From Clostridia bacterium (GTDB lineage Bacteria; Bacillota; Clostridia; Christensenellales; Aristaeellaceae): a DNA stretch of 32,000 nucleotides. The notes under the pieces were generated by a model, which had not been told where the DNA came from, searched no databases, and was given only the letters and a program-made list of their open reading frames with translations. Shown in pieces: positions 1-19,214 of the stretch; positions within the stretch are counted from its first letter, which is position 1, and every line of letters begins with the position of its first letter. The stretch lies in the NCBI GenBank assembly GCA_045617125.1, contig JAZLIA010000056.1:4612-36611 (forward strand), given 5' to 3'. Made by a program: the position numbers and the translations under genes.

Positions 1-1204
1 GGATAAAGCCGTTCACGATCGCACCGGCTGCCTGTTCGGAAATATCGCCGTCCCGGGCCAGGTCTTTCATCAGCTCAGCCCGGGTGATCGGGTGTTTAAG
101 AAGCTGATACAGATATGCGCCGGTTTCCGTGAGGCGCAGATGACCGCTGTAATCCCGCTGAAGCTCCGGGGACAAAGCCACCATGTTTATCTTTCCCGTA
201 CGGATCAGACGAGTCCCCTCTTTCAGGCACAGCACGGCATCCTCTGCAAAATGTTCGGGACACCGTTTGGCTGCCTTTTCCGCTTCCTCATTCATCCGGT
301 ATTCTTCCTGCATCTGCTCCGTCTTTTGCTTCGAGCTTTGCTGCTGCTGCAGATAAAGCGAATACTGCTTCTGTGCTTCCCTGATCCCCGCCTGCAAGAC
401 CCGATACTCAGGAAAATCCGCGGCATATTTCCAGAATTCATCACCGAAAGGACGCACATAGGAAAACTTCCACGGTTTTCTGCTTCCGCACCAATGCAGG
501 ATGAGCGTTTCATCCGGGAGCGCTTCTTCTTCCCCAAGGGTAAACTCTTCCAGATTGAAGCGGCGGCTTTCGCATATTCTCACCTGGCGGTAAAACGCCA
601 GGTTCAAAATATCCTGATCGCCAAGCAGCAATCTGTCGCCAAAGCCGTCCGCAATCTGACGGTAGAGATCGGGGGCCAGCTTTTCCCGCTGGGCTTTCAG
701 GTCAAACAGGAGCACACCGGCATTGAAATACACCACATCCTCCGGGAAAATGCCCTGACAGAGGCGGTTATATTTCGTTGTCTCCGAGCCAAGCTCACAG
801 CGGCACGCGGCCATCAGGTTTCCTTCCAGGTCCTGATGGTAAAATTCCTCCAGATCTCCGCGGATCACGAGATCCCCGTCCAGATACAGCACTCTTTCCA
901 CATCGGGCGGCAGAAGCTGAGCGGCAAACAGGCGAAAATAGGTCTCTCCCGTGATCCACGGACAACGCAGCGGCGGAGCACAGGGATCTTCTTCCGTGAC
1001 ATGGATCCATTCCACTTTTGCATGTCCGCTTTTTTCCGCGTCAGCGTTCAAAAGCGCCTTCGCGGTCTGATTCAGTTCGCGGAACATGACAAAAAGGCGC
1101 ACAGGACAGTTATTGTGCGCCAGAAAAGAATGAAACATGACCCTGGTGGGCATAAAATAGTCGTTGTTGACCGCAACTAACAGGTTCAACCATTCCTCTT
1201 TCAT
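1..1204 (-). CDS. GT8-family glycosyltransferase fused to a C-terminal PqqD-like RiPP recognition element (partial; C-terminus lies beyond the window start)
   Basis: Absent from the ORF track because no stop codon lies in the window. Hand translation of the minus strand from ATG 1204-1202 (GGAGGG at 1216-1211, 6 nt spacer) stays open for 401 codons to base 2. GT8 signature blocks: MKEEWLNLLVAVNNDYFMPTRVMFHSFLAHN, YFRLFAAQLLP, VLYLDGDLVIRGDL (DxD), YFNAGVLLFDL, GDQDILN, ILHWCGSRKPW. A Q/E-rich linker follows, then HLRLTETGAYLYQLLKHPITRAELMKDLARDGDISEQAAGAIVNGFI, which reads like a PqqD/RRE winged-helix domain. The + strand ORF 92..1180 is its antisense shadow. Confidence 0.8.
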   Translation of the reverse strand, partial: MKEEWLNLLVAVNNDYFMPTRVMFHSFLAHNNCPVRLFVMFRELNQTAKALLNADAEKSGHAKVEWIHVTEEDPCAPPLRCPWITGETYFRLFAAQLLPPDVERVLYLDGDLVIRGDLEEFYHQDLEGNLMAACRCELGSETTKYNRLCQGIFPEDVVYFNAGVLLFDLKAQREKLAPDLYRQIADGFGDRLLLGDQDILNLAFYRQVRICESRRFNLEEFTLGEEEALPDETLILHWCGSRKPWKFSYVRPFGDEFWKYAADFPEYRVLQAGIREAQKQYSLYLQQQQSSKQKTEQMQEEYRMNEEAEKAAKRCPEHFAEDAVLCLKEGTRLIRTGKINMVALSPELQRDYSGHLRLTETGAYLYQLLKHPITRAELMKDLARDGDISEQAAGAIVNGFI

Positions 1205-1232
1205 CAGAATCCCTCCGGTATTGATGATGTTA

Positions 1233-1265
1233 CCGCCCCGGAACGCATTCCGCTTTCCGGGGCGG
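1233..1265 (-). promoter_or_regulatory. GC-rich stem-loop between the last precursor gene and the glycosyltransferase gene (no U-tract; candidate attenuator or mRNA-processing/stability element)
   Basis: Perfect 10 bp inverted repeat, ccgccccgga (1233-1242) and tccggggcgg (1256-1265), with a 13 nt loop. It sits in the 112 nt gap between the stop at 1317 and the ATG at 1204. No T-run follows on either strand. Confidence 0.55.
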
Positions 1266-1316
1266 ATCTGACATTTCCAGCTGCTGCCTTTCTACGCCGG
1301 GATCAATGCGTTATGT

Positions 1317-1499
1317 TTACTGATCATCAAGATGACAATAATTGGACGGTATAAAACGTAACTGTTTCATTTTGTTGTTATTCGTAAAGATAGCGCCCCC
1401 GCTTACCTGCTCCAGTTCTTCTTCCGTCAGCTCCGCAAGCTTAACCTTCAATGCATGAAGTTCTTCCTTAAGGGCATCCAGTTCCTGCCTGGTTTTCAT
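1317..1499 (-). CDS. RiPP/bacteriocin-like precursor peptide P1 (60 aa; double-glycine leader 1499..1395, core AIFTNNNKMKQLRFIPSNYCHLDDQ)
   Basis: ORF track peptide MKTRQELDALKEELHALKVKLAELTEEELEQVSGG|AIFTNNN... GGAGGAA RBS at 1512-1506. The leader is near-identical to the two upstream paralogs and the core is unrelated. ELxxEELEQVSGG matches the double-glycine leader consensus. Confidence 0.8.
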   Translation of the reverse strand: MKTRQELDALKEELHALKVKLAELTEEELEQVSGGAIFTNNNKMKQLRFIPSNYCHLDDQ

Positions 1500-1517
1500 T
1501 GTTCATTCCTCCATCAA

Positions 1518-1700
1518 TCAAAGATATCTGAATTTTCCCTCTTCAACTATGCCTTTTATGTCTTTCACGCTCTTGCCCGTGAAGACAGCGCCTCCGCTCA
1601 CCTGCTCCAGTTCCTCTTCCGTCAGCTCCGCGAGCTTATCCTTCAATGCATAAAGTTCTTCCTTAAGGGCATCCAGTTCCTGCTTTGTCTGCATCATCAT
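1518..1700 (-). CDS. RiPP/bacteriocin-like precursor peptide P2 (60 aa; leader 1700..1590, core AVFTGKSVKDIKGIVEEGKFRYL)
   Basis: MMMQTKQELDALKEELYALKDKLAELTEEELEQVSGG|AVFTGKS... GGAGGAATG context directly upstream. It shares a 111 nt stretch, identical by manual comparison, with P3 that covers the leader plus AVFTG. Only 18 nt separate it from the P1 start. Confidence 0.8.
   Translation of the reverse strand: MMMQTKQELDALKEELYALKDKLAELTEEELEQVSGGAVFTGKSVKDIKGIVEEGKFRYL
1573..1683 (-). repeat. 111 nt direct repeat, copy A (leader-coding part of P2)
   Basis: The string ttgcccgtgaagacagcgcctccgctcacctgctccag...catccagttcctgc is identical base for base, by manual comparison, to 1952-2062. A diverged third copy lies at about 1393-1499 in P1, with a handful of substitutions. 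Confidence 0.9.
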
Positions 1701-1815
1701 TCCTCCATCCTGTTTTTATGGTCCATCTGCATATACGAAAATGATCCTCATGGCGGCCAGTCGGATATGAAGAATGATGATTTTTTCTTCCCGAAGGTCT
1801 TCCGCCCCGATCTTA

Positions 1816-2073
1816 TCATCTTTTTATAAACTCATTTTCATCCGTGCCCTCAAGCTTATTATTCAGCTTTCCCTTTGCATTAGGCTCGATCAGCTCATCT
1901 TCAAGATAAAGAAAACCGAGCGGGCCCGCAAGGAGATTTTTTATTCTGGTATTGCCCGTGAAGACAGCGCCTCCGCTCACCTGCTCCAGTTCCTCTTCCG
2001 TCAGCTCCGCGAGCTTATCCTTCAATGCATAAAGTTCTTCCTTAAGGGCATCCAGTTCCTGCCTGGTCTTCAT
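1816..2073 (-). CDS. RiPP/bacteriocin-like precursor peptide P3 (85 aa; leader 2073..1969, 50-aa core AVFTGNTRIKNLLAGPLGFLYLEDELIEPNAKGKLNNKLEGTDENEFIKR)
   Basis: MKTRQELDALKEELYALKDKLAELTEEELEQVSGG|AVFTGNT... AAAGGAGGAA RBS at 2090-2081. It is the first gene downstream of a near-consensus promoter at 2236-2208. Confidence 0.8.
   Translation of the reverse strand: MKTRQELDALKEELYALKDKLAELTEEELEQVSGGAVFTGNTRIKNLLAGPLGFLYLEDELIEPNAKGKLNNKLEGTDENEFIKR
1952..2062 (-). repeat. 111 nt direct repeat, copy B (leader-coding part of P3)
   Basis: Identical to 1573-1683. Identity stops 2 nt after the AVFTG codons on one side and at leader codon 4 on the other. Weaker homology, roughly 70% by eye, continues about 80 nt upstream of both genes (1701-1780 versus 2074-2150). 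Confidence 0.9.
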
Positions 2074-2207
2074 CGTTCATTCCTCCTTTAAATATCATTG
2101 TGGTCCCATGATATATACGAAGATGGTTGATAGGATGGCTGATCGGTATAAAACTTTTTTCAGGATCATGTTCTTTTCCGTTTTTCCGCACCGATCATTC
2201 CGCCTTG

Positions 2208-2236
2208 ATTATACCACTTATATTTCCCCATTGCAA
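2208..2236 (-). promoter_or_regulatory. Sigma-A type promoter driving the precursor array (-35 TTGCAA, 17 nt spacer, extended -10 TGGTATAAT)
   Basis: The minus strand reads gcaTTTGCAAtggggaaatataagtggTATAATcaagg. The -35 is at 2236-2231 and the -10 at 2213-2208. The ROK stop codon (2220-2218) lies inside the spacer. The predicted 5' UTR to the P3 ATG is about 125 nt. Confidence 0.55.
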
Positions 2237-3363
2237 ATGCCGCTCATATACCTGCGGGTCAGATAAATGCCCGCGCCGATCGCGGCAGAATCATCCGTAT
2301 ACAGGCTGGTTCTGATCCTGACCTTTTCGCAGTCGAACGGGCATTCCGCCTGCACCATCCTTTCAAGCAATTCCACATCCGAAGGGAGCATATAGCGAAG
2401 CAGATACCCGCACAGCACATATTCCGTGTCCATCAGCATGCGGATGTTGCTGATGGTCAGCGCCAGATCATGCAGATATCTATTCCACACCGCCGCAGCC
2501 TTCTTATCCCCCGCACGCAGCTTGATAAAAAAATCCCGCAGCTTTTCTCCGGCATTCCTCTGCAGGGCATAGGCGGAGCAGTACGCCTCTATGCAGCCTT
2601 TTTTTCCGCAATAGCACTTTTCGCCGCCGGGATACAGGCACATGTGCTCGATCACGCTGCTGCTCAGCTCAATGCCCTGATATACCTTTCCGTTCACAAT
2701 GACCGCGCCGCCGAAATACCGGTTCAGATACAGCAGTACGGCATCCTTCATATCCTTCTGGATCCACGATTCCGCAAGCGCGGATGCCTCCGTATCATGC
2801 ATCATGGAGCAGGGATACGGGATGCAGCGTTCAAACTTCTCCAACAGCCTTTCTCCGCTGCATTCGAGGATCCTGCCGAACAGGAGCGAACCGCCGTCCC
2901 TGGAAACCAGCCCCTGTATCGCTATAGACACGCCCAGCACCTGCCCTTTTTCCGGATGAAGCTGCAAAAGCTGGCTCTCCGTCACTTCCGCGATCCTTTC
3001 GAAATAATCGTCCGTGCAGGAAAACATCCTCTGCTCATCAAAGGATCGCAGGGGCTTTCCGTACAGATCCACCACGACCACATGAAAGTATTCTTTTTGT
3101 ACGGCAATGCCCACAGCCACTTTTTTCGCAGCGGCAAACTGATACACCCTTGCTTTTCTGCCGCCGGTGGAATGATACATCCCCGTGCGCAGGATCATTC
3201 CCTGTTCCTCCCACAGCTTCAGGTTTTGGCTCACCGTGGGAAGGCTCATTTTCAGTTCCTGCGCGATCTGCTGTTTGGAAACCCCTTCCGATCCATACAC
3301 ATATCTGAGCAGCCGCAGCGAGTTTTGCTCTCTGACATCGGCGGTGGACAGTGTCTCCCCCAT
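2218..3363 (-). CDS. ROK-family transcriptional regulator (NagC/XylR-like)
   Basis: 381 aa. N-terminal wHTH (VSKQQIAQELKMSLPTVSQNLKLWEEQGMI), a sugar-kinase-like fold, and the ROK zinc motif CYCGKKGCIEAYCS. Confidence 0.85.
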   Translation of the reverse strand: MGETLSTADVREQNSLRLLRYVYGSEGVSKQQIAQELKMSLPTVSQNLKLWEEQGMILRTGMYHSTGGRKARVYQFAAAKKVAVGIAVQKEYFHVVVVDLYGKPLRSFDEQRMFSCTDDYFERIAEVTESQLLQLHPEKGQVLGVSIAIQGLVSRDGGSLLFGRILECSGERLLEKFERCIPYPCSMMHDTEASALAESWIQKDMKDAVLLYLNRYFGGAVIVNGKVYQGIELSSSVIEHMCLYPGGEKCYCGKKGCIEAYCSAYALQRNAGEKLRDFFIKLRAGDKKAAAVWNRYLHDLALTISNIRMLMDTEYVLCGYLLRYMLPSDVELLERMVQAECPFDCEKVRIRTSLYTDDSAAIGAGIYLTRRYMSGICNGEI

Positions 3364-3467
3364 GCGCTACCCCATCCCTTATATCATATTCTTTGTTTAA
3401 TCTATCATATTTCTATAAGAAAGACAAGCCGTAATGACGCATCTGAAACAGAAACGCGAAATGACTC

Positions 3468-3497
3468 TTGACTTTTTCCAAATTTCAGTGATATGAT
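3468..3497 (+). promoter_or_regulatory. Candidate sigma-A promoter for the dehydrogenase pair (-35 TTGACT, 18 nt spacer, extended -10 TGATATGAT)
   Basis: TTGACT at 3468-3473 and TATGAT at 3492-3497, preceded by TGA. It lies in the divergent intergenic region between the ROK gene and the first dehydrogenase. Confidence 0.45.
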
Positions 3498-3562
3498 AGT
3501 TTAGATTTGAAAAGCATTTTTACAAAAGTTCTTGCTTTGCCAGTTTGAAAGGAGACCCTATC

Positions 3563-4597
3563 ATGTTACAGCAGGTGATGACAGCCCCCGGAAAGATCCT
3601 TTTCAGAGAGATCGAAAAGCCCCAGCCCGCAGCGGACGAGGTGGTCGTCCGGATCATGAAGATCGGCGTATGCGGAAGCGACATCCATGTTTATCACGGA
3701 AAACACCCCTTCACCAAATATCCGGTCACGCAGGGACACGAAGTTTCCGGAAAGATCGAAGCTCTCGGCAGCGCCGTCACCGAATTCCGGATCGGTCAGA
3801 AGGTCACGATCGAGCCTCAGGTCTATTGCGGAAAGTGCTATCCCTGCACGCACGGCAAGTATAACCTGTGTGAGGAGCTGAAAGTGATGGGGTTCCAGAC
3901 CACCGGCACCGCCAGCAAATATTTCGCCGTGAAAGCGTCCAAGGTGACGCCTCTTCCTGAAAGCATGACCTATAACGAAGGCGCGATGATCGAGCCACTG
4001 GCCGTCACGGTCCACGCAGCCAAACGGGCCGGCGACATAAAGGACAAAAAGATCGCCGTGCTGGGCGCGGGCCCCATCGGCATCCTGCTTGCGCAAAGCG
4101 TAAAAGCGCTCGGGGCAAAGGAAGTGCTGATCACCGATATCAGCCCCTTCCGTCTGCAGCTTGCGAAGACCTGCGGAGCCGATCATGCCGTGAACACGCG
4201 TGAAGAGGATTTCGGCGAGGCGCTCATCCGCTGCTTCGGTCCTGACAAGGCTGATGTGATCTACGACTGTGCGGGCAACGACATCACCATCAACCAGGCG
4301 ATCCGCTGTGCAAGAAAGGGCAGCACCATTATTCTGGTCGCAGTCTTCGCAGACATGGCAAAAGCGGACATGGCCGTGCTCAACGATCATGAGCTGGACC
4401 TGAACAGCAGCATGATGTACCGCCATGAAGACTATGTTGAAGCCATCCGCCTTGTTAATGAGGGCAGGATCCAGCTGAAACCGCTTATGAGCAAGCACTT
4501 TGCATTTGCTGATTACGCGAAGGCATATCAGTTTATCGACGCTAACCGTGAAACCACCATGAAGGTGCTCATCGACGTTGATGACAGTGAAGAATAA
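3563..4597 (+). CDS. Zn-dependent alcohol/polyol dehydrogenase (MDR family, sorbitol/threonine dehydrogenase-like)
   Basis: GVCGSDIHVYHG, GHEVSGKIEALG, structural-Zn lobe CGKCYPCTHGKYNLC, NAD fold VLGAGPIGIL. I prefer ATG 3563 (AAAGGAG 8 nt upstream) over the TTG at 3545 used by the track. Confidence 0.85.
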   Translation: MLQQVMTAPGKILFREIEKPQPAADEVVVRIMKIGVCGSDIHVYHGKHPFTKYPVTQGHEVSGKIEALGSAVTEFRIGQKVTIEPQVYCGKCYPCTHGKYNLCEELKVMGFQTTGTASKYFAVKASKVTPLPESMTYNEGAMIEPLAVTVHAAKRAGDIKDKKIAVLGAGPIGILLAQSVKALGAKEVLITDISPFRLQLAKTCGADHAVNTREEDFGEALIRCFGPDKADVIYDCAGNDITINQAIRCARKGSTIILVAVFADMAKADMAVLNDHELDLNSSMMYRHEDYVEAIRLVNEGRIQLKPLMSKHFAFADYAKAYQFIDANRETTMKVLIDVDDSEE

Positions 4598-4656
4598 AAA
4601 TAAATCAGCAGGACCGCAAGACCGCATGCAAACGCATGCTGAAAGGAGATGCTCCC

Positions 4657-5685
4657 ATGAGAAGCTGCTACTATCTTGGAAACAGGCAGTTTGAGGTGCG
4701 TGAAGAGCCCGTTCCTGCCCCCGGGGCGGAGGAAGTGCTGGTAAAGGTGGATTCCTGCGGCGTCTGCGGCACTGATGTTCACATTTATCACGGCGATAAG
4801 GGCTCTGCCGAGGTGATCCCTCCCGTGGTGCTGGGACACGAGTTTGCCGGCACGGTAGTGAGCGTAGGAAGCCGGGTAACCGGCTTGAAAGCAGGGGATC
4901 ATGTGACGGTGGATCCCAACATCTACTGCGGAAAATGTCACTATTGCCGCATCGGCAAAAAACAGCTGTGTGAAAATCTGTACGCCATCGGCGTCAACCG
5001 CAACGGAGGCTTCGCGGAATACTGCGTTGCCCCGGAGACCCAGTGTTACCTTCTTTCCCCCGAAGTGCCCCTCGAATACGGCGCCATGGCAGAACCCCTC
5101 GCCTGCTGCCTGCACGGTATCGAACAGGCAGGCATCTGCCCCGGCAGCACGGTATGCGTGCTGGGCGGCGGCGCGATCGGCCTGATCATGGTGCAATTGG
5201 CCCGCCTTTCCGGCGCGTCAAAAGTGATTCTGAGCGAACCGGTGGAAATGCGAAGGAACATCGGGCTTGAATTGGGAGCCGACGCGGCGGTCGATCCCAT
5301 CCATGAGGATCTGCCCGCCCGTGTGCGGGAATTGCTCGGCACGCCAGGCCCCGATGTGGTGATCGAGTGCGTCGGCAACCCTGCCGCTGCACAGCAGGCC
5401 CTGAGCATCGTAAAGCGTGGCACCGCCGTGCTCCTGTTCAGCGTGCCCCAGGCCGGGACCTCGGTTTCCCTTTCGCTGGACGATGTGTACCACAAGGAGC
5501 TGAAGATCACAGGCTCCCTCATCAATCCCGACACTCATGGCCGTGCCGCCGCGCTGATCAACAGCGGATGCATCCGCCTGGACTGCATCGAGACGCATAC
5601 TTTTCCCATTGAAAAGCTGGAAGACGCGATTTTGATGCAGCAAAGCAACGAATCGCTGAAGGTTCTGGTAAAACCCGGCCTCTGA
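4657..5685 (+). CDS. Zn-dependent alcohol/polyol dehydrogenase (MDR family), paralog of the preceding gene
   Basis: GVCGTDVHIYHG, GHEFAGTVVSVG, CGKCHYCRIGKKQLC, VLGGGAIGLI. ATG 4657 has GAAAGGAG upstream; the track start at 4636 lacks an RBS. Confidence 0.85.
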   Translation: MRSCYYLGNRQFEVREEPVPAPGAEEVLVKVDSCGVCGTDVHIYHGDKGSAEVIPPVVLGHEFAGTVVSVGSRVTGLKAGDHVTVDPNIYCGKCHYCRIGKKQLCENLYAIGVNRNGGFAEYCVAPETQCYLLSPEVPLEYGAMAEPLACCLHGIEQAGICPGSTVCVLGGGAIGLIMVQLARLSGASKVILSEPVEMRRNIGLELGADAAVDPIHEDLPARVRELLGTPGPDVVIECVGNPAAAQQALSIVKRGTAVLLFSVPQAGTSVSLSLDDVYHKELKITGSLINPDTHGRAAALINSGCIRLDCIETHTFPIEKLEDAILMQQSNESLKVLVKPGL

Positions 5686-8327: not shown

Positions 8328-9599
8328 CTACGCATTCAGCCAGTTTTTCCTGTGATAATCTTCCGCCTCAAAGCCTTCTTTATCGATCACGGTATACGGA
8401 AAGGATAAGTCTTTCAAAGCATCCAGAAAAAAGGAAAAAGCCTCATCCGTTTTCAATATATTGCTAAGACTCAATATGCATTTGTCCTTTATACAATAGC
8501 TGACCAGGTAAAGCCCGGTTGCTCCTCTTGCACCGCAGTAAGTATCAAAATTCTCTATATACGGAGCAATATCTCCTAAGTTCAGCACTCTCTGATAGGT
8601 CAGCGTCGGCGTAGAATTGCGTCCGACGGCATAAGCGGTTTTGATATCTTCGATGGTATCGGCTTGCCGCACAATGCACTCAAAATCGGTTTTTTTCTTT
8701 TCCATCACCTGAAGCAGGTATTCTTCCGATATCTGCAGCTTCAGCATTTCTTTCAAACAGCTTAACTGCCGGGCCAACGGCATATTCTGAAATGTCATGG
8801 GATAAACGAATCTGGCATCGGTACAGCAATTCTGCAAGGTGTCCTTACAGCCGAGTATGATGCGCATATCGACGGGGCAATTGACTATAAAAGGCCTGTC
8901 TTCGGAGGGATACAATTTCCGTATCGTTCGGATCAGGATCATCGCCAGCACAGAGGAAACGCTGCTTTGGGCTTCTGTGCTGAGCGACAGGATCTCTCTT
9001 GCGGGAATATAAACACGCAGCCTGCGGGATCGCACTCCAATCTTTTCTTTCTCAAAGAAAAAGCCGTCAGAGAGGGGCATGGAATGCTTCTCATCCACAG
9101 AAACGGCATATCGATAAGGATTTACATATTCATTCGCACCCGGTTTGCTGCCAGGGCACAGTTCTCCCGGAACATGCAATTCTTTTCCCGTTGCTCTGCG
9201 AAGGTATTCCGCTGCCAGTGACAGTGTAAAACGAACGGCTCCTACCGCATCCGTCAGTGCATGATGGATAGAAACATATACCGTATCGCCGCCGTACGCT
9301 ATCAGTAAAAGGAAACCGCAGTTCCTTTCATCGTTGAAAAGTACGTAGCCTTCATTTTGAAGAACGGGAAAAGTATCTTTCGTCTGCCTCAAAGCATAGA
9401 TGCCGTTTCTGATCTCCCTCTTTCTGATAAAATACGGGCAGCGTTCCGCCATCGCATCTGCAGCGGCGCGAAGATGTGCGGAGCTGATCATTTCTTTTGT
9501 GGAAAAGCATTGGAAAATATGCACCGTTTCGTCTTCATAATACAGGAATCTGTCACCCGGAGACGGGACAGGATCATTGATCAAATGAGATTTATTCAT
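8328..9599 (-). CDS. Stand-alone condensation-domain-like / HHxxxD acyltransferase superfamily protein (function unknown)
   Basis: 423 aa, the size of one NRPS C-domain or PapA5/WS-DGAT-type enzyme. Contains IHHALTDAVG (residues 111-120, coordinates 9269-9240), resembling the HHxxxDG catalytic motif. GGAGAA RBS. The gene and its flanks are visibly more AT-rich than the neighbours. Confidence 0.5.
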   Translation of the reverse strand: MNKSHLINDPVPSPGDRFLYYEDETVHIFQCFSTKEMISSAHLRAAADAMAERCPYFIRKREIRNGIYALRQTKDTFPVLQNEGYVLFNDERNCGFLLLIAYGGDTVYVSIHHALTDAVGAVRFTLSLAAEYLRRATGKELHVPGELCPGSKPGANEYVNPYRYAVSVDEKHSMPLSDGFFFEKEKIGVRSRRLRVYIPAREILSLSTEAQSSVSSVLAMILIRTIRKLYPSEDRPFIVNCPVDMRIILGCKDTLQNCCTDARFVYPMTFQNMPLARQLSCLKEMLKLQISEEYLLQVMEKKKTDFECIVRQADTIEDIKTAYAVGRNSTPTLTYQRVLNLGDIAPYIENFDTYCGARGATGLYLVSYCIKDKCILSLSNILKTDEAFSFFLDALKDLSFPYTVIDKEGFEAEDYHRKNWLNA

Positions 9600-18443: not shown

Positions 18444-19214
18444 TTACGGATGTTGATATGCAGAAAAACTGAACATGGGTTCCCGGTTCGCCAGTGCGAT
18501 CCATTCTCTGAGAGAGGAAAGCTGCTCCGCGCTTCCCACGCACTGGAAAAACGCTCCGCCTTCACAGCCACACACCCCGCCTCCGGCCACCAGATGCGGC
18601 TCGCAGCCTGTGAGAGAATGGATCGCGTCCAATTCTGTAAACACCGTGCCAAAGGACGGCGCCAGCCTTTCCCCCACCGCATCCGGTGAATTACATAACA
18701 GACAAAGCCGGGAAATGGGTTCGTATACCCGTTTCTCCACGCCCACCGGAGTAATGAGCTTTGCACGCCTTCCCACCACGGCCCGGTAGATCACGCCCAT
18801 CGTGCCGGAGGTGGGGTTGCCTGCCAGCACGGCGGCTTCACCGGTTTGCAGATTGACCGCGTTGGCCCCCTTGAAAATCAGGTCTCCCTCCTGCAGGGCA
18901 TCGCCCACATCATGGATCGTGGCTCCCTTCTGCCACACACCGTGATCAATGACCACATCGCCCTTCACTCTTTTGAGGCTCCCGGGGATCGCTTCCCGCC
19001 GGATGATACCCCGGAAAAAGCCGTGGATATCAAAATCCCCTTCCCCGATCTGATGCAGAAGTTCCTCGGCCAAATATGCGTTCGTTGTGCCTGCGACCAC
19101 CACCACCCGGCGGTTTTTCATCGCATTCAAAACTTCCTCCTGCCTGGAAAGAGCCAGTGCGATCAGCCTTTTTCCGCCAGCCGGGGTAAGAAACACCTGC
19201 TTGGATTCCGTCAT
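18444..19214 (-). CDS. Hypothetical protein (256 aa), translationally coupled to the biotin carrier gene
   Basis: ATGA start/stop overlap with the upstream gene (19214-19211). I recognise no family. It has a Rossmann-like stretch RRVVVVAGTTNAYLAEELL and a Gly/Cys-rich stretch VAGGGVCGCEGGAFF. Confidence 0.6.
   Translation of the reverse strand: MTESKQVFLTPAGGKRLIALALSRQEEVLNAMKNRRVVVVAGTTNAYLAEELLHQIGEGDFDIHGFFRGIIRREAIPGSLKRVKGDVVIDHGVWQKGATIHDVGDALQEGDLIFKGANAVNLQTGEAAVLAGNPTSGTMGVIYRAVVGRRAKLITPVGVEKRVYEPISRLCLLCNSPDAVGERLAPSFGTVFTELDAIHSLTGCEPHLVAGGGVCGCEGGAFFQCVGSAEQLSSLREWIALANREPMFSFSAYQHP

Follow-up and report, generated by a model that had tools for sequence, protein, structure and literature searches.

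What does an enzyme that joins a GT8 glycosyltransferase to a PqqD-type RRE act upon, and do the peptide genes beside it supply the substrates? We investigated this question on the minus strand at the left edge of a 32-kb stretch of DNA (the window), for which a preliminary description, made from the sequence alone, had claimed (i) an unannotated frame, open from ATG 1204 to the window edge and encoding the fusion, on an ORF track showing only a 362-aa plus-strand ORF (92..1180), and (ii) leader-guided glycosylation of peptides, probably with retention of anomeric configuration.

The fusion gene is real and intact

The minus-strand frame comprises 401 open codons (1204..2), as claimed, and an identical public protein, P0001, is 415 aa long, with 401 of its 415 codons inside the window; the last 14 residues and the stop therefore lie to the left of the window, and the gene is intact rather than a pseudogene. 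An interruption of the frame just left of the window, which would have refuted the preliminary description, is thereby excluded, and the flanking contig sequence that it deemed necessary for a full-length check shrinks to 14 residues only. As to the label "unannotated", the enzyme and the three peptides are already among the predictions of a public gene caller. The plus-strand ORF does exist, and it matches no Pfam family. When the window gene is compared with an 89%-identical ortholog (L004), the differences number 30, 23, and 51 at minus-frame codon positions 1, 2, and 3, respectively, and 38 of the 84 altered codons are synonymous in the minus frame, a pattern that fits minus-strand coding. 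The plus-strand ORF was therefore rejected as a gene, and the GT8-RRE fusion gene is real and intact.

The left flank was inferred from L004, in which the fusion gene is followed by a cupin/nitroreductase and then by what we take to be, judging the family by eye from the translation, a probable GH42 enzyme. Scanning P0001 against genome contigs and JGI metagenomes gave no match, and a tRNA and Rfam search of the window likewise returned none. The named relatives are Ca. Limivicinus and Clostridia/Oscillospiraceae MAGs.

Table 1. Coordinates of the features assigned to the window, with the basis or content of each.
Feature	Position	Strand	Basis or content
Sigma-70-like promoter, TTGCAA-17-TATAAT with TG extension	2208..2237	-	Upstream of peptide 1; 10/12 consensus
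Precursor peptide 1, 85 aa	1816..2073	-	Leader 1969..2073; 50-aa core begins AVFTGNTRIKNLL
Precursor peptide 2, 60 aa from first ATG	1518..1700	-	Leader GG end at 1590; core AVFTGKSVKDIKGIVEEGKFRYL
Precursor peptide 3, 60 aa	1317..1499	-	Leader residues 1-35 (1395..1499), GG end; core AIFTNNNKMKQLRFIPSNYCHLDDQ
GC-rich hairpin, 11-bp stem, no T-run	1233..1265	-	Between last peptide gene and enzyme gene
GT8-RRE fusion gene	1..1204	-	Open frame; identical P0001; GGAGG Shine-Dalgarno 8 nt upstream of ATG 1204
GT8 (GT-A fold) catalytic domain, residues 8-246	467..1183	-	PF01501 match; PDB sequence matches
Gln/Glu/Lys-rich linker, residues ~265-310	275..412	-	AF2: one long helix
PqqD-type RRE, residues ~320-401 of 415 in window	2..247	-	PF05402, hhalign, AF2, Foldseek

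The enzyme combines a GT8 domain with a C-terminal PqqD-type RRE

The N-terminal domain matches PF01501 (Glyco_transf_8) with an E value of 5.7e-32 and 111.7 bits over profile positions 2-250 of 253, which meets the curated cut-off for GT8 membership (24.3 bits). Its motifs are NNDYFMP (13-19), YFRLFAAQLLP (89-99), YLDGD (107-111, with D109 and D111 as the DXD), FNAGVLL (160-166), DQDILN (196-201, with D196-Q197-D198), and HWCGSRKPW (237-245, with H237...K243-P-W). Among PDB sequences, 3tzt (E 1.2e-20) and LgtC (1g9r; E 7e-15) were matched, and the motifs align with both residue for residue, such that YLDGD corresponds to YLDID, GDQDILN to QDQDILN, and HWCGSRKPW to HYCGPAKPW of LgtC. The motif residues (DXD, FNAGVLL, DQD, and H..KPW) are invariant in all seven family members, and in structural alignments P0001 is ~20% identical to LgtC, 3tzt, and GlyE. 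All motifs quoted in the preliminary description are present, except that its H-x-x-G-x-KPW is in fact H-x-x-G-x-x-KPW, one residue longer, and the GT8 assignment itself holds on profile and structure-based alignment evidence. GT8 is a retaining CAZy family; the claim that anomeric configuration is probably retained is inferred solely from this membership.

No other part of the protein is as poorly conserved as the linker that follows (27-40% identity between the clades described below). The AF2 helix of this linker (H265-310) is of low confidence (pLDDT ~50-63), and the Gln/Glu-rich stretch previously placed at ~268-305 falls within it.

Because the window edge cuts the C-terminal domain (~320-415 in the full-length protein, with the C-terminal 14 residues outside), the window fragment scores under the PF05402 threshold (18.9 versus 23.4 bits); full-length P0001 passes it barely (24.8 bits, E 2.8e-5). 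Moreover, the PqqD profile is matched by all seven family members (best E 3.2e-9), hhalign against a stand-alone PqqD gave 98% probability (E 1.7e-13), and the nearest sequence relatives of the domain are more than 200 stand-alone PqqD proteins of ~88 aa. A PDB sequence profile search with this domain yielded nonsignificant matches only (lasso PqqD 9x90_B, E 0.83; TfuB1, E 0.96); hhalign and the structure comparison took its place as evidence.

The AF2 model of the RRE domain alone (pLDDT 91.5, pTM 0.83) is a winged helix-turn-helix with three main strands (E10-13, E17-22, and E25-30), a short fourth strand (E42-44) before helix 1, and three helices (H46-54, H61-72, and H76-92). Its top Foldseek matches were TbiB1 with leader, PqqD, TfuB1, and the PbtF RRE (TM 0.66-0.80, rmsd 2.3-3.3 Å). 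Almost all PDB matches were RRE-containing RiPP proteins (TbiB1, PqqD, TfuB1, PbtF, ThcOx, TglHI, McbBCD, MibB, MccB, and LynD), several of them solved with leader bound, and the matches were specific to PqqD/RRE structures rather than to DNA-binding winged helix-turn-helix proteins. The three-strand, three-helix fold that the preliminary description had proposed to look for was thus found, the unrelated fold that would have refuted it was not, and its RRE claim holds on the full-length protein by profile, profile-profile, and structure tests. As the GT8 part of the full-length AF2 model (7-sequence alignment) is poor (pLDDT 30-50), the relative geometry and packing of the two domains could not be derived. 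The fusion of a GT8 domain to a C-terminal PqqD-type RRE is hence shown, whereas leader binding and catalysis are inferred.

Three GG-leader peptide genes precede the enzyme gene

Directly upstream of the enzyme gene, on the same strand, lie three tandem small genes that had been overlooked, each preceded by a GGAGG ribosome-binding site. The gene caller gave peptide 2 as 58 aa (P0280), and the exact sequence of peptide 3 was found in a public protein collection. The peptides share a common 35-residue leader (MKTRQELDALKEELYALKDKLAELTEEELEQVSGG), and all three pass the 15.7-bit cut-off of TIGR01847 (bacteriocin_sig, the NCBIfam double-glycine leader model), with peptides 1, 2, and 3 scoring 17.9, 17.7, and 16.8 bits, respectively. 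When these paralogs are compared, the leaders agree at 31-33 of 35 residues, but the first 22 residues of the cores at only 3-8. Each gene has its ribosome-binding site and leader covered by one of the three copies of a 153-nt direct repeat.

The window cores contain 6-9% Ser+Thr and 0, 0, and 1 Cys. An A(V/I)FT(G/N) motif stands right after the GG site of the window peptides. This FTG motif recurs after GG in one L001 peptide, which makes two independent occurrences only, and no FT motif is present in the L004 peptide core; we therefore rejected it as an established acceptor and treat it merely as a hint.

The promoter is the sole strong minus-strand promoter-like site in 1..3600, on consensus match only. 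The intergenic region that holds the hairpin has a folding energy of -39.4 kcal/mol (z = -2.2), and the hairpin is retained in the centroid fold; this hairpin might be an mRNA stabilizer or an attenuator setting the peptide:enzyme ratio, a function that is only inferred. No C39 peptidase or ABC_membrane exporter was found among the scanned ORFs of the 32-kb window, whose only ABC system is of the ABC-2/auxiliary type (15.2-18.4 kb), and no immunity gene or other tailoring gene was found in the window. The gene for a C39-type exporter could lie in another part of the genome.

Peptide genes adjoin the enzyme at every fusion locus examined

The fusion enzyme is rare, with seven clusters at 90% identity and two representatives at 50% identity among 1.84 billion. 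We compared seven sequence-distinct fusion loci (the window, L001, L002/L003, L004, L005, L019/L020, and L021), all of which carry one to five GG-leader peptide genes adjacent to, upstream of, and on the same strand as the enzyme gene; in L001, L019, and L021, a peptide gene overlaps the enzyme start codon. The loci fall into two clades that differ in the leader type adjoining the enzyme. In clade A (the window and L004), the sole adjacent peptides carry the window-type (type-1) leader and lie no more than ~110-120 nt from the enzyme start, apparently in one operon with it, whereas the clade B peptide that abuts the enzyme gene carries another leader, of a rare kind (type-2), together with a Ser-rich core. 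Identity between the clades is 34-39% in the RRE domain versus 51-55% in the GT8 domain; this greater divergence of the RRE, together with the differing leader types, fits RRE-leader co-evolution.

The closest unfused GT8 relatives, P0008 (42% identity) and the P0009 type (36%), adjoin a separate PqqD gene, which constitutes split-gene (Rosetta-stone) evidence. Besides tailoring genes and an ABC transporter, their RiPP-like clusters encode a small S/T/P-rich peptide, and an HPr-kinase-like (ScmC) protein, a nucleotidyltransferase (NTP_transf_5), and a GT2 are always present; P0008 itself is a GT8-ScmC fusion. No ScmC, NTP_transf_5, or GT2 partners occur in the window, L001, L002, L004, L005, L019, or L021. 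In clade B and the unfused relatives, the core of the enzyme-adjacent peptide is 25-48% Ser+Thr, which fits O-glycosylation. GT8s at ≤34% identity occur in ordinary polysaccharide contexts without PqqD.

The type-1 leader family comprises at least 4000 clusters, and its peptides usually form tandem arrays with no enzyme nearby. The contrast between this huge family and the rare enzyme indicates that such peptides generally do not need the fusion enzyme, and the adjacency of peptides and enzyme could in part reflect insertion into an existing peptide array. The leader sequence was not found in the literature searched. Our analysis also brings to light a very large family of GG-leader peptides with hypervariable cores in gut-associated Clostridia, which apparently has not been described.

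Proposed mechanism

We consider it likely, at a probability of about 0.68, that the locus is a minimal RiPP-type operon in which the RRE recognizes the leader while the core is glycosylated by the GT8 domain; binding and glycosylation are inferred, without biochemical evidence. The operon would run from the promoter through three precursor genes and the hairpin to one gene for a bifunctional enzyme. The C-terminal RRE is predicted to bind the conserved 35-residue leader, which would join it as an added strand at beta3/alpha3, the mode expected of RREs, while the helical linker of ~45 residues would tether the N-terminal GT8 domain, which would transfer a sugar from a nucleotide-sugar donor, in a Mn2+/DXD-dependent manner, onto the variable core. 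The acceptor would most likely be a Ser/Thr hydroxyl, with the Thr of A(V/I)FT(G/N) after GG as a candidate, and the linkage would be alpha if the anomeric configuration is retained. The leader would then be cut off at the GG site by a C39-type peptidase/exporter whose gene would lie outside the locus. Leader binding, glycosyl transfer to these particular peptides, the acceptor, the sugar, the stereochemistry, and the processing are all inferences. Since the window cores are poor in Ser/Thr and the L004 core lacks the FT motif, the acceptor site is uncertain. The leader-guided peptide glycosylation claimed in the preliminary description is supported by the GG-leader neighbors, their conserved linkage to the enzyme, and the PqqD genes beside unfused GT8s, and it still rests on inference.

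A bolder reading, which we hold only as a possibility, is that one promiscuous, RRE-tethered retaining glycosyltransferase acts on many precursors with the shared 35-residue leader and generates a combinatorial library of alpha-O-glycosylated peptides. If true, GT8 glycopeptides would form a new class of RiPPs, and the two-component, leader-programmable system that makes them could be used for peptide glyco-engineering.

Alternative explanations

The enzyme could be a leader-guided glycosyltransferase whose true substrate lies elsewhere in the genome (e.g., a Ser-rich peptide with a type-2 leader), its gene merely ending a common array. In favor of this are the abundance of type-1 leader peptides, mostly unlinked to any enzyme; the rare leader and Ser-rich core of the peptide that touches the clade B enzyme; and the Ser/Thr-poor window cores. 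However, the clade A loci have type-1 peptides only, at close spacing and apparently in one operon with the enzyme, the genes downstream of the L004 ortholog are unrelated, and the strong divergence between the RREs of clades A and B is what a leader switch in clade A would be expected to produce; we regard this explanation as unlikely. Similarly improbable, in our view, is that the GT8 domain extends a group (a phosphate or a first sugar) installed by an enzyme encoded elsewhere. On serine-rich repeat adhesins, GT8 enzymes lengthen existing glycans in this way; a further precedent is the kinase/nucleotidyltransferase tailoring of Firmicutes lasso peptides (PMC8498205), and in pseudomycoidin a sugar is joined to phosphoserine (PMC8498205). 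Further support comes from the constant ScmC-like, NTP_transf_5, and GT2 partners of the unfused relatives, including the GT8-ScmC fusion P0008, and from GlyE (5gvv, a Streptococcus pneumoniae GT8), which is among both the sequence and the structure matches and whose role is glycan extension. Against it, the partner genes are missing from the window and from the six other loci listed above, and an operon of peptides and one enzyme is most simply read as direct modification.

The explanation to which we give least credence, and which we judge very unlikely, is that of an ordinary polysaccharide or cell-envelope GT8 with a winged helix-turn-helix for dimerization, regulation, or DNA binding, the peptides being coincidental. 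Most GT8 homologs found carry lipopolysaccharide-type transferase annotation, the best NCBIfam match is a lipopolysaccharide galactosyltransferase model (far under its cut-off), and the winged helix-turn-helix is a widespread fold that is not confined to RiPP pathways. However, the domain matches PqqD/RRE structures and not DNA-binding ones, its nearest sequence relatives are stand-alone PqqD proteins, GG-leader peptides stand beside the enzyme at 7/7 loci, in some overlapping its start codon, and the fusion genes, in contrast to P0010, have no polysaccharide genes beside them. Direct, leader-guided glycosylation of the adjacent peptides remains our preferred reading.

Comparison with known systems

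Glycocins are O- and/or S-glycosylated RiPPs (PMC12457901), and their enzymes (SunS, GccA, ThuS, and EntS, of the sublancin/glycocin F type) likewise comprise a single glycosyltransferase beside a GG-leader precursor, yielding a glycosylated peptide. Glycocin glycosyltransferases are inverting GT2 enzymes that form beta linkages and are not known to carry a PqqD-type RRE; the cores are Cys-stapled helical hairpins, and the clusters carry a peptidase-transporter and thiol-disulfide oxidoreductases. In contrast, the window enzyme has no PF00535 match, belongs to GT8 (a retaining family), and carries a fused RRE, the peptide cores have 0-1 Cys, and the window contains no transporter-peptidase or oxidoreductase. 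Lacking a SunS-like GT2 and paired Cys in the cores, the system was rejected as a glycocin.

PqqD and the lasso B1 proteins (TbiB1, 5v1v; TfuB1, 6jx3) share the fold and Pfam family of the window RRE. The latter differs, however, in being fused C-terminally to a glycosyltransferase through a long helical linker and in being paired with a helical GG leader instead of a lasso or PqqA leader, and the window locus has no lasso cyclase, protease, or radical SAM partner. A module of PqqD, an HPr-kinase homolog, and NTP_transf_5 has been described for the lasso peptides paeninodin and pseudomycoidin (PMC7533575, PMC8498205). Its three components, with an ABC transporter, occur in the unfused sister GT8 clusters, whereas the window operon retains the PqqD element only, as a fused domain. 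No lasso cyclase was seen at any related locus, and membership in this tailoring group was rejected because the kinase-like and nucleotidyltransferase partners are missing from the window and the other fusion loci.

LgtC (1g9r), the Anaerococcus GT8 3tzt, and GlyE (5gvv) share the catalytic family and motifs of the window GT8. These enzymes act on lipooligosaccharide or protein-attached glycans, and none of the three is known to have a peptide-recognition domain. Prochlorosin-type systems pair one enzyme with numerous precursors that share a leader but differ widely in the core, and the window system resembles them in its conserved leader, hypervariable cores, paralogous precursors, and double-glycine processing. 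Its chemistry would be glycosylation, not lanthionine formation, and enzyme promiscuity is backed by no data.

The closest architectural parallels are the RRE-glycosyltransferase proteins of which RRE-Finder, in exploratory mode, listed 56, such as Hassallia byssoidea KIF29242.1 (PMC7470986), and the recorded RRE fusions to PF00535/GT2 (PMC12710340). Both sets embody the same idea and were flagged as candidate new RiPP chemistry, as bioinformatic lists without characterization in which GT2 (PF00535) is the sole family named; GT8/PF01501 is not mentioned in the text or supplements that we searched, nor did any paper in the literature searched connect GT8 to RREs or RiPPs. RRE-glycosyltransferase fusions are thus already known bioinformatically, and only the GT8 version was not found in the literature searched. 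To our knowledge, no GT8 is among the RiPP glycosyltransferases studied, and the best-studied glycocin enzymes, which are GT2 (inverting), are not known to use an RRE. The window operon is probably a compact, uncharacterized system for sugar-decorated peptides in a gut Clostridia-type bacterium; with its precursors and one enzyme it is unusually compact, which makes it amenable to co-expression testing, and a leader tag might serve as a tool to program site-selective peptide glycosylation. By comparison with the systems above, its GT8 domain and RRE in one chain would make it the first candidate for leader-directed retaining (alpha) glycosylation of ribosomal peptides.

The enzyme gene and its GT8 domain

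The minus strand is open for 401 codons from the ATG at 1204 to the window edge, and its product matches Pfam Glyco_transf_8 (PF01501; E 5.7e-32, residues 8-246), with a plus-strand ORF lying over the same gene. Relative to the 89%-identical orthologue at locus L004 (P0002), the minus frame carries 30, 23, and 51 nucleotide differences at codon positions 1, 2, and 3, respectively, and 38 of its 84 changed codons are synonymous. This substitution pattern identifies the minus frame as the gene and the plus-strand ORF as its antisense shadow; the latter matched no Pfam family, and it was ruled out as a gene on both grounds. The same artefact occurs a second time in the window, where a 353-aa minus-strand ORF without a family match overlies a real alcohol dehydrogenase gene. 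P0001, a public 415-aa protein, is identical across all 401 window residues, so that no more than the last 14 residues and the stop codon fall outside the window. The preliminary description had read a minus-strand gene hidden behind an antisense ORF, which held; its reservation that the frame might break just left of the window, indicating a pseudogene, did not, as P0001 is full length.

Every GT8 motif that it had listed was found. Among PDB sequences, phmmer matched an Anaerococcus GT8 (3tzt; E 1.2e-20) and LgtC (E 7e-15), and the enzyme motifs aligned with both: YLDGD with the DXD motif of LgtC (YLDID), GDQDILN with QDQDILN, and HWCGSRKPW with HYCGPAKPW, while FNAGVLL is the same in both aligned sequences. 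As no motif residue varies among the seven fusion family members either, the GT8 domain is likely to be catalytically competent, its activity being inferred. Retention of anomeric configuration, previously called probable, is inferred solely from GT8 being a retaining CAZy family.

The C-terminal domain

The C-terminal domain is a PqqD-type RRE (PF05402) by profile, hhalign, and predicted structure. The truncated window fragment scored 18.9 bits against Pfam PqqD, under the 23.4-bit threshold, whereas full-length P0001 scored 24.8 bits, and 7/7 fusion family members matched (best E 3.2e-9). Searched against 1.84 billion representative proteins, the domain profile retrieved two fusion representatives and then more than 200 stand-alone proteins of ~88 aa, eight ordinary examples of which matched PqqD at E 1e-11 to 1e-19; hhalign aligned it with the stand-alone PqqD beside the closest unfused GT8 over 82 columns (98% probability, E 1.7e-13). 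Searching the PDB with a profile of this domain by sequence alone gave nothing significant. AlphaFold2 modelled the domain alone (pLDDT 91.5, pTM 0.83) as three main strands followed by a fourth, short one and then three helices. Its best Foldseek matches in the PDB were TbiB1 with bound leader (TM 0.71/0.80), PqqD, TfuB1 with bound leader, and the PbtF RRE, followed by ThcOx, TglHI, McbBCD, MibB, MccB, and LynD; this list (the full-length model was searched too) consists essentially of solved RRE-containing RiPP proteins. The PqqD-like assignment of the preliminary description thus held in Pfam on the full-length protein, hhalign, AlphaFold2, and Foldseek, and the three-strand, three-helix arrangement that it named is present in the model, plus the additional strand.

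Two other proteins retrieved from the representative set, namely P0158 (362 aa; E 1.8e-14) and P0176 (214 aa; E 2.1e-16), carry a C-terminal PqqD match behind N-terminal regions of ~270 and ~125 residues, respectively, without a Pfam match, and may be further uncharacterised RRE fusions.

Precursor peptides and the type-1 leader

Directly upstream of the enzyme gene, on the same strand, are three small genes that were absent from the preliminary description (peptides 1 to 3, numbered from the farthest upstream), each preceded by a GGAGG ribosome-binding site. Their products share the 35-aa double-glycine (GG) leader MKTRQELDALKEELYALKDKLAELTEEELEQVSGG, termed type-1, and all three exceed the 15.7-bit cut-off of the NCBIfam double-glycine leader model TIGR01847 (17.9, 17.7, and 16.8 bits). 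Paralogue pairs are identical at 31-33 of 35 leader residues and, over the first 22 residues of the core, at just 3-8; the peptide 3 leader differences are mostly synonymous in one of two comparisons, and three copies of a 153-nt direct repeat span the ribosome-binding site and leader. One strong sigma-70-like site precedes peptide 1, a ROK-family regulator lies upstream of the operon, and the hairpin ahead of the enzyme gene could act in mRNA processing, stability, or attenuation. The remainder of the window encodes sugar and central metabolism, and a scan of ORFs in these 32 kb turned up neither a C39 peptidase-exporter nor an immunity gene nor any additional tailoring gene. Two sizeable ORFs had no Pfam match at E <= 0.001.

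Features of the window and of retrieved loci (L)
Feature	Locus	Coordinates	Strand	Remarks
Antisense shadow ORF	window	92..1180	+	over enzyme gene
Hairpin	window	1265..1233	-	GC-rich, 11-bp stem, no T-run; between last peptide gene and enzyme gene
Peptide 3 gene	window	1317..1499	-	ORF, 60 aa
Peptide 2 gene	window	1518..1700	-	ORF, 60 aa
Peptide 1 gene	window	1816..2073	-	ORF, 85 aa
Sigma-70-like site	window	2237..2208	-	TTGCAA-17 nt-TATAAT with TG extension; upstream of peptide 1
Zn-dependent alcohol dehydrogenase gene	window	3545..4597	+	beneath shadow ORF
Antisense shadow ORF	window	3566..4627	-	353 aa
Second Zn-dependent alcohol dehydrogenase gene	window	4636..5685	+	follows the first
ORF without Pfam match	window	8328-9599	-	423 aa
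ORF without Pfam match	window	18444-19214	-	256 aa
Peptides at P0002	L004			one type-1
Peptides at P0003 (Candidatus Limivicinus MAG)	L001/L012			two intact type-1, one split over two frames, one type-2
Peptides at P0004	L005			five
Peptides at P0005	L002/L003			one
Peptides at P0006	L021			one overlapping enzyme start codon; two more GG-leader peptide genes downstream
Peptides at P0007	L019/L020			one, overlapping enzyme start codon
Sister-clade adjacent peptide	L001	1237-1464
Sister-clade adjacent peptide	L002	3932-4201
Sister-clade adjacent peptide	L005	2259-2567
Sister-clade adjacent peptide	L019	97-447
Sister-clade adjacent peptide	L021	1-213
Type-1 arrays	L022	4506-6416 and 9376-9672
Type-1 array	L024	301-3627

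Proteins sharing the type-1 leader (consensus MKTKEELNALKEEVETLNKKLAELTEEELEQVSGG; window 1317-2073) are small, have hypervariable cores, and make up a very large, uncharacterised family that comprises at least 4000 clusters at E <= 0.01 and was brought to light by the window operon; the leader sequence was in no paper of the literature searched. On other contigs, housekeeping genes surround tandem arrays of 7-9 such peptide genes, and no enzyme or transporter gene was found within 8 kb. Because the leader family is enormous and its arrays are mostly enzyme-free, the enzyme is an occasional add-on to type-1 peptides and not a general requirement. Some members hold two leader-GG units within one ORF (P0281, P0290, P0310; L021 1510-1683). 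GRRYW or GREYW closely follows the GG site in unrelated samples (P0282, P0286, P0293, P0335), with a looser GRRFRYW in P0310, and this recurrence suggests conserved sub-families inside the hypervariable cores.

The fusion family and its unfused relatives

The fusion family comprises seven clusters at 90% identity and, at 50% identity, two representatives among 1.84 billion proteins. GG-leader peptide genes lie directly upstream, on the same strand, at every retrieved fusion locus. In the sister clade (P0003-P0007), the adjacent peptide has a distinct and rare type-2 leader, KKVLNEVVNGTxDTENLMVEVNEL..GG (2 clusters found, no more), and a core of 28-48% Ser+Thr; the gene of this peptide overlaps the enzyme start codon in three of the clade's loci (L001, L019, and L021). 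Between this clade and clade A (the window and L004), identity is 51-55% in the GT8 domain and 34-39% in the RRE, consistent with an RRE that diverged along with its leader. At L001 868-1141, a type-1 leader peptide gene appears to be split between two reading frames, MKTKEELNALKKDVDTVKKTP then MTEEELEQVMGG..., through either a frameshift that left a pseudogene or an error in the assembly.

Outside the family, the closest GT8 relatives adjoin a separate PqqD gene. Ahead of P0008 (42% identical), a GT8-ScmC/HPr-kinase-like fusion, lie genes for a 35-aa peptide and an 87-aa PqqD; after it come genes for a 149-aa protein, an NTP_transf_5 nucleotidyltransferase, an ABC transporter, and a GT2. All six loci retrieved from Clostridia/Oscillospiraceae MAGs (L013-L018; GT8 36-37% identical) share the order ABC-2 transporter genes (where the contig extends), NTP_transf_5, ScmC-like gene, and GT8, with a PqqD gene identified directly downstream in L015, L016, and L018 (Pfam E 3e-15 in L015). 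Only in L015 and L018 were the genes further downstream read, and both loci encode a protein of ~152 aa and a small S/T/P-rich peptide; L015 additionally has a GT2 gene and a membrane protein that matches GT87 below threshold. Since these relatives adjoin PqqD, whereas GT8 homologues of <=34% identity have surroundings that are unrelated or typical of polysaccharide loci, with no PqqD, we infer a distinct GT8 clade with a functional link to RREs and small peptides. In the window's lineage, the GT8 and PqqD genes have fused.

The combination of PqqD with a kinase and a nucleotidyltransferase has been described in the tailoring of Firmicutes lasso peptides (paeninodin and pseudomycoidin; PMC7533575, PMC8498205). 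The unfused clusters (L006-L011 and L013-L018, e.g. L015 6544-12944; downstream part read in L006-L011, L015, and L018 only) combine GT8 and a separate PqqD with ABC transporter genes, NTP_transf_5, a ScmC/HPr-kinase-like protein (part of the GT8 protein in P0008), a small S/T/P-rich peptide, and a ~150-aa protein; a GT2 was present where checked (L006-L009 and L015), and no lasso cyclase was seen in their examined parts. They look like an undescribed glyco-RiPP cluster type borrowing the lasso-peptide tailoring module. Their ~150-aa protein has a GDSMEP motif in the L006 copy.

Proposed function and alternatives

The analysis shows which families the two domains belong to, that the catalytic motifs are intact, and that the enzyme gene has precursor-type genes beside it in a linkage that is conserved; we consider leader-guided glycosylation of the adjacent peptides the likely explanation of these findings (probability about 0.68), with all biochemistry inferred. 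The RRE would bind the leader of the precursor, and a helical linker (residues ~265-310, modelled at low confidence) would tether the GT8 domain, which would glycosylate the core, probably on Ser/Thr in alpha linkage, using a nucleotide sugar donor and a divalent metal; the leader would then be cut off by a double-glycine peptidase/exporter encoded elsewhere. The preliminary description had proposed leader-guided peptide glycosylation, which is supported, and to which the precursor genes and split-gene relatives lend added strength.

A weak point of this mechanism is that the window cores are poor in Ser/Thr (6-9%); another is that most of the enormous type-1 family has no such enzyme nearby. 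Immediately past the GG site, the A(V/I)FT(G/N) motif of the window peptides holds a conserved Thr, which one L001 peptide shares and the L004 peptide lacks. That the enzyme has a different, dedicated substrate is unlikely, although the sister-clade adjacent peptide, with its other leader and Ser/Thr-rich core, speaks for it. We also regard as improbable that the GT8 domain extends a pre-installed group instead of glycosylating the core directly. Least plausible, at very low likelihood, is an acceptor that is not a peptide, against which stand the GG-leader genes upstream at every retrieved fusion locus.

Relation to known systems

RRE-glycosyltransferase fusions were flagged by RRE-Finder, whose exploratory mode gave 56 proteins with a cyanobacterial example (PMC7470986), and PF00535/GT2 fusions with an RRE were named in a 2025 survey (PMC12710340); both are uncharacterised lists. 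GT8 together with an RRE or RiPP had no mention in the literature searched, which is not proof of its absence from the literature overall; the architectural idea was listed before, and its GT8 version was not found in that search. The proposed product, a glycosylated, GG-leader-processed peptide, would resemble glycocins, but the catalytic domain is GT8 and not GT2, the core is not Cys-stapled, and transporter and oxidoreductase genes are absent from the cluster, and we therefore rejected glycocin membership. By analogy, the system would work like RRE-dependent RiPP tailoring enzymes and, with all chemistry untested, offers a compact, directly testable candidate for leader-guided retaining glycosylation.
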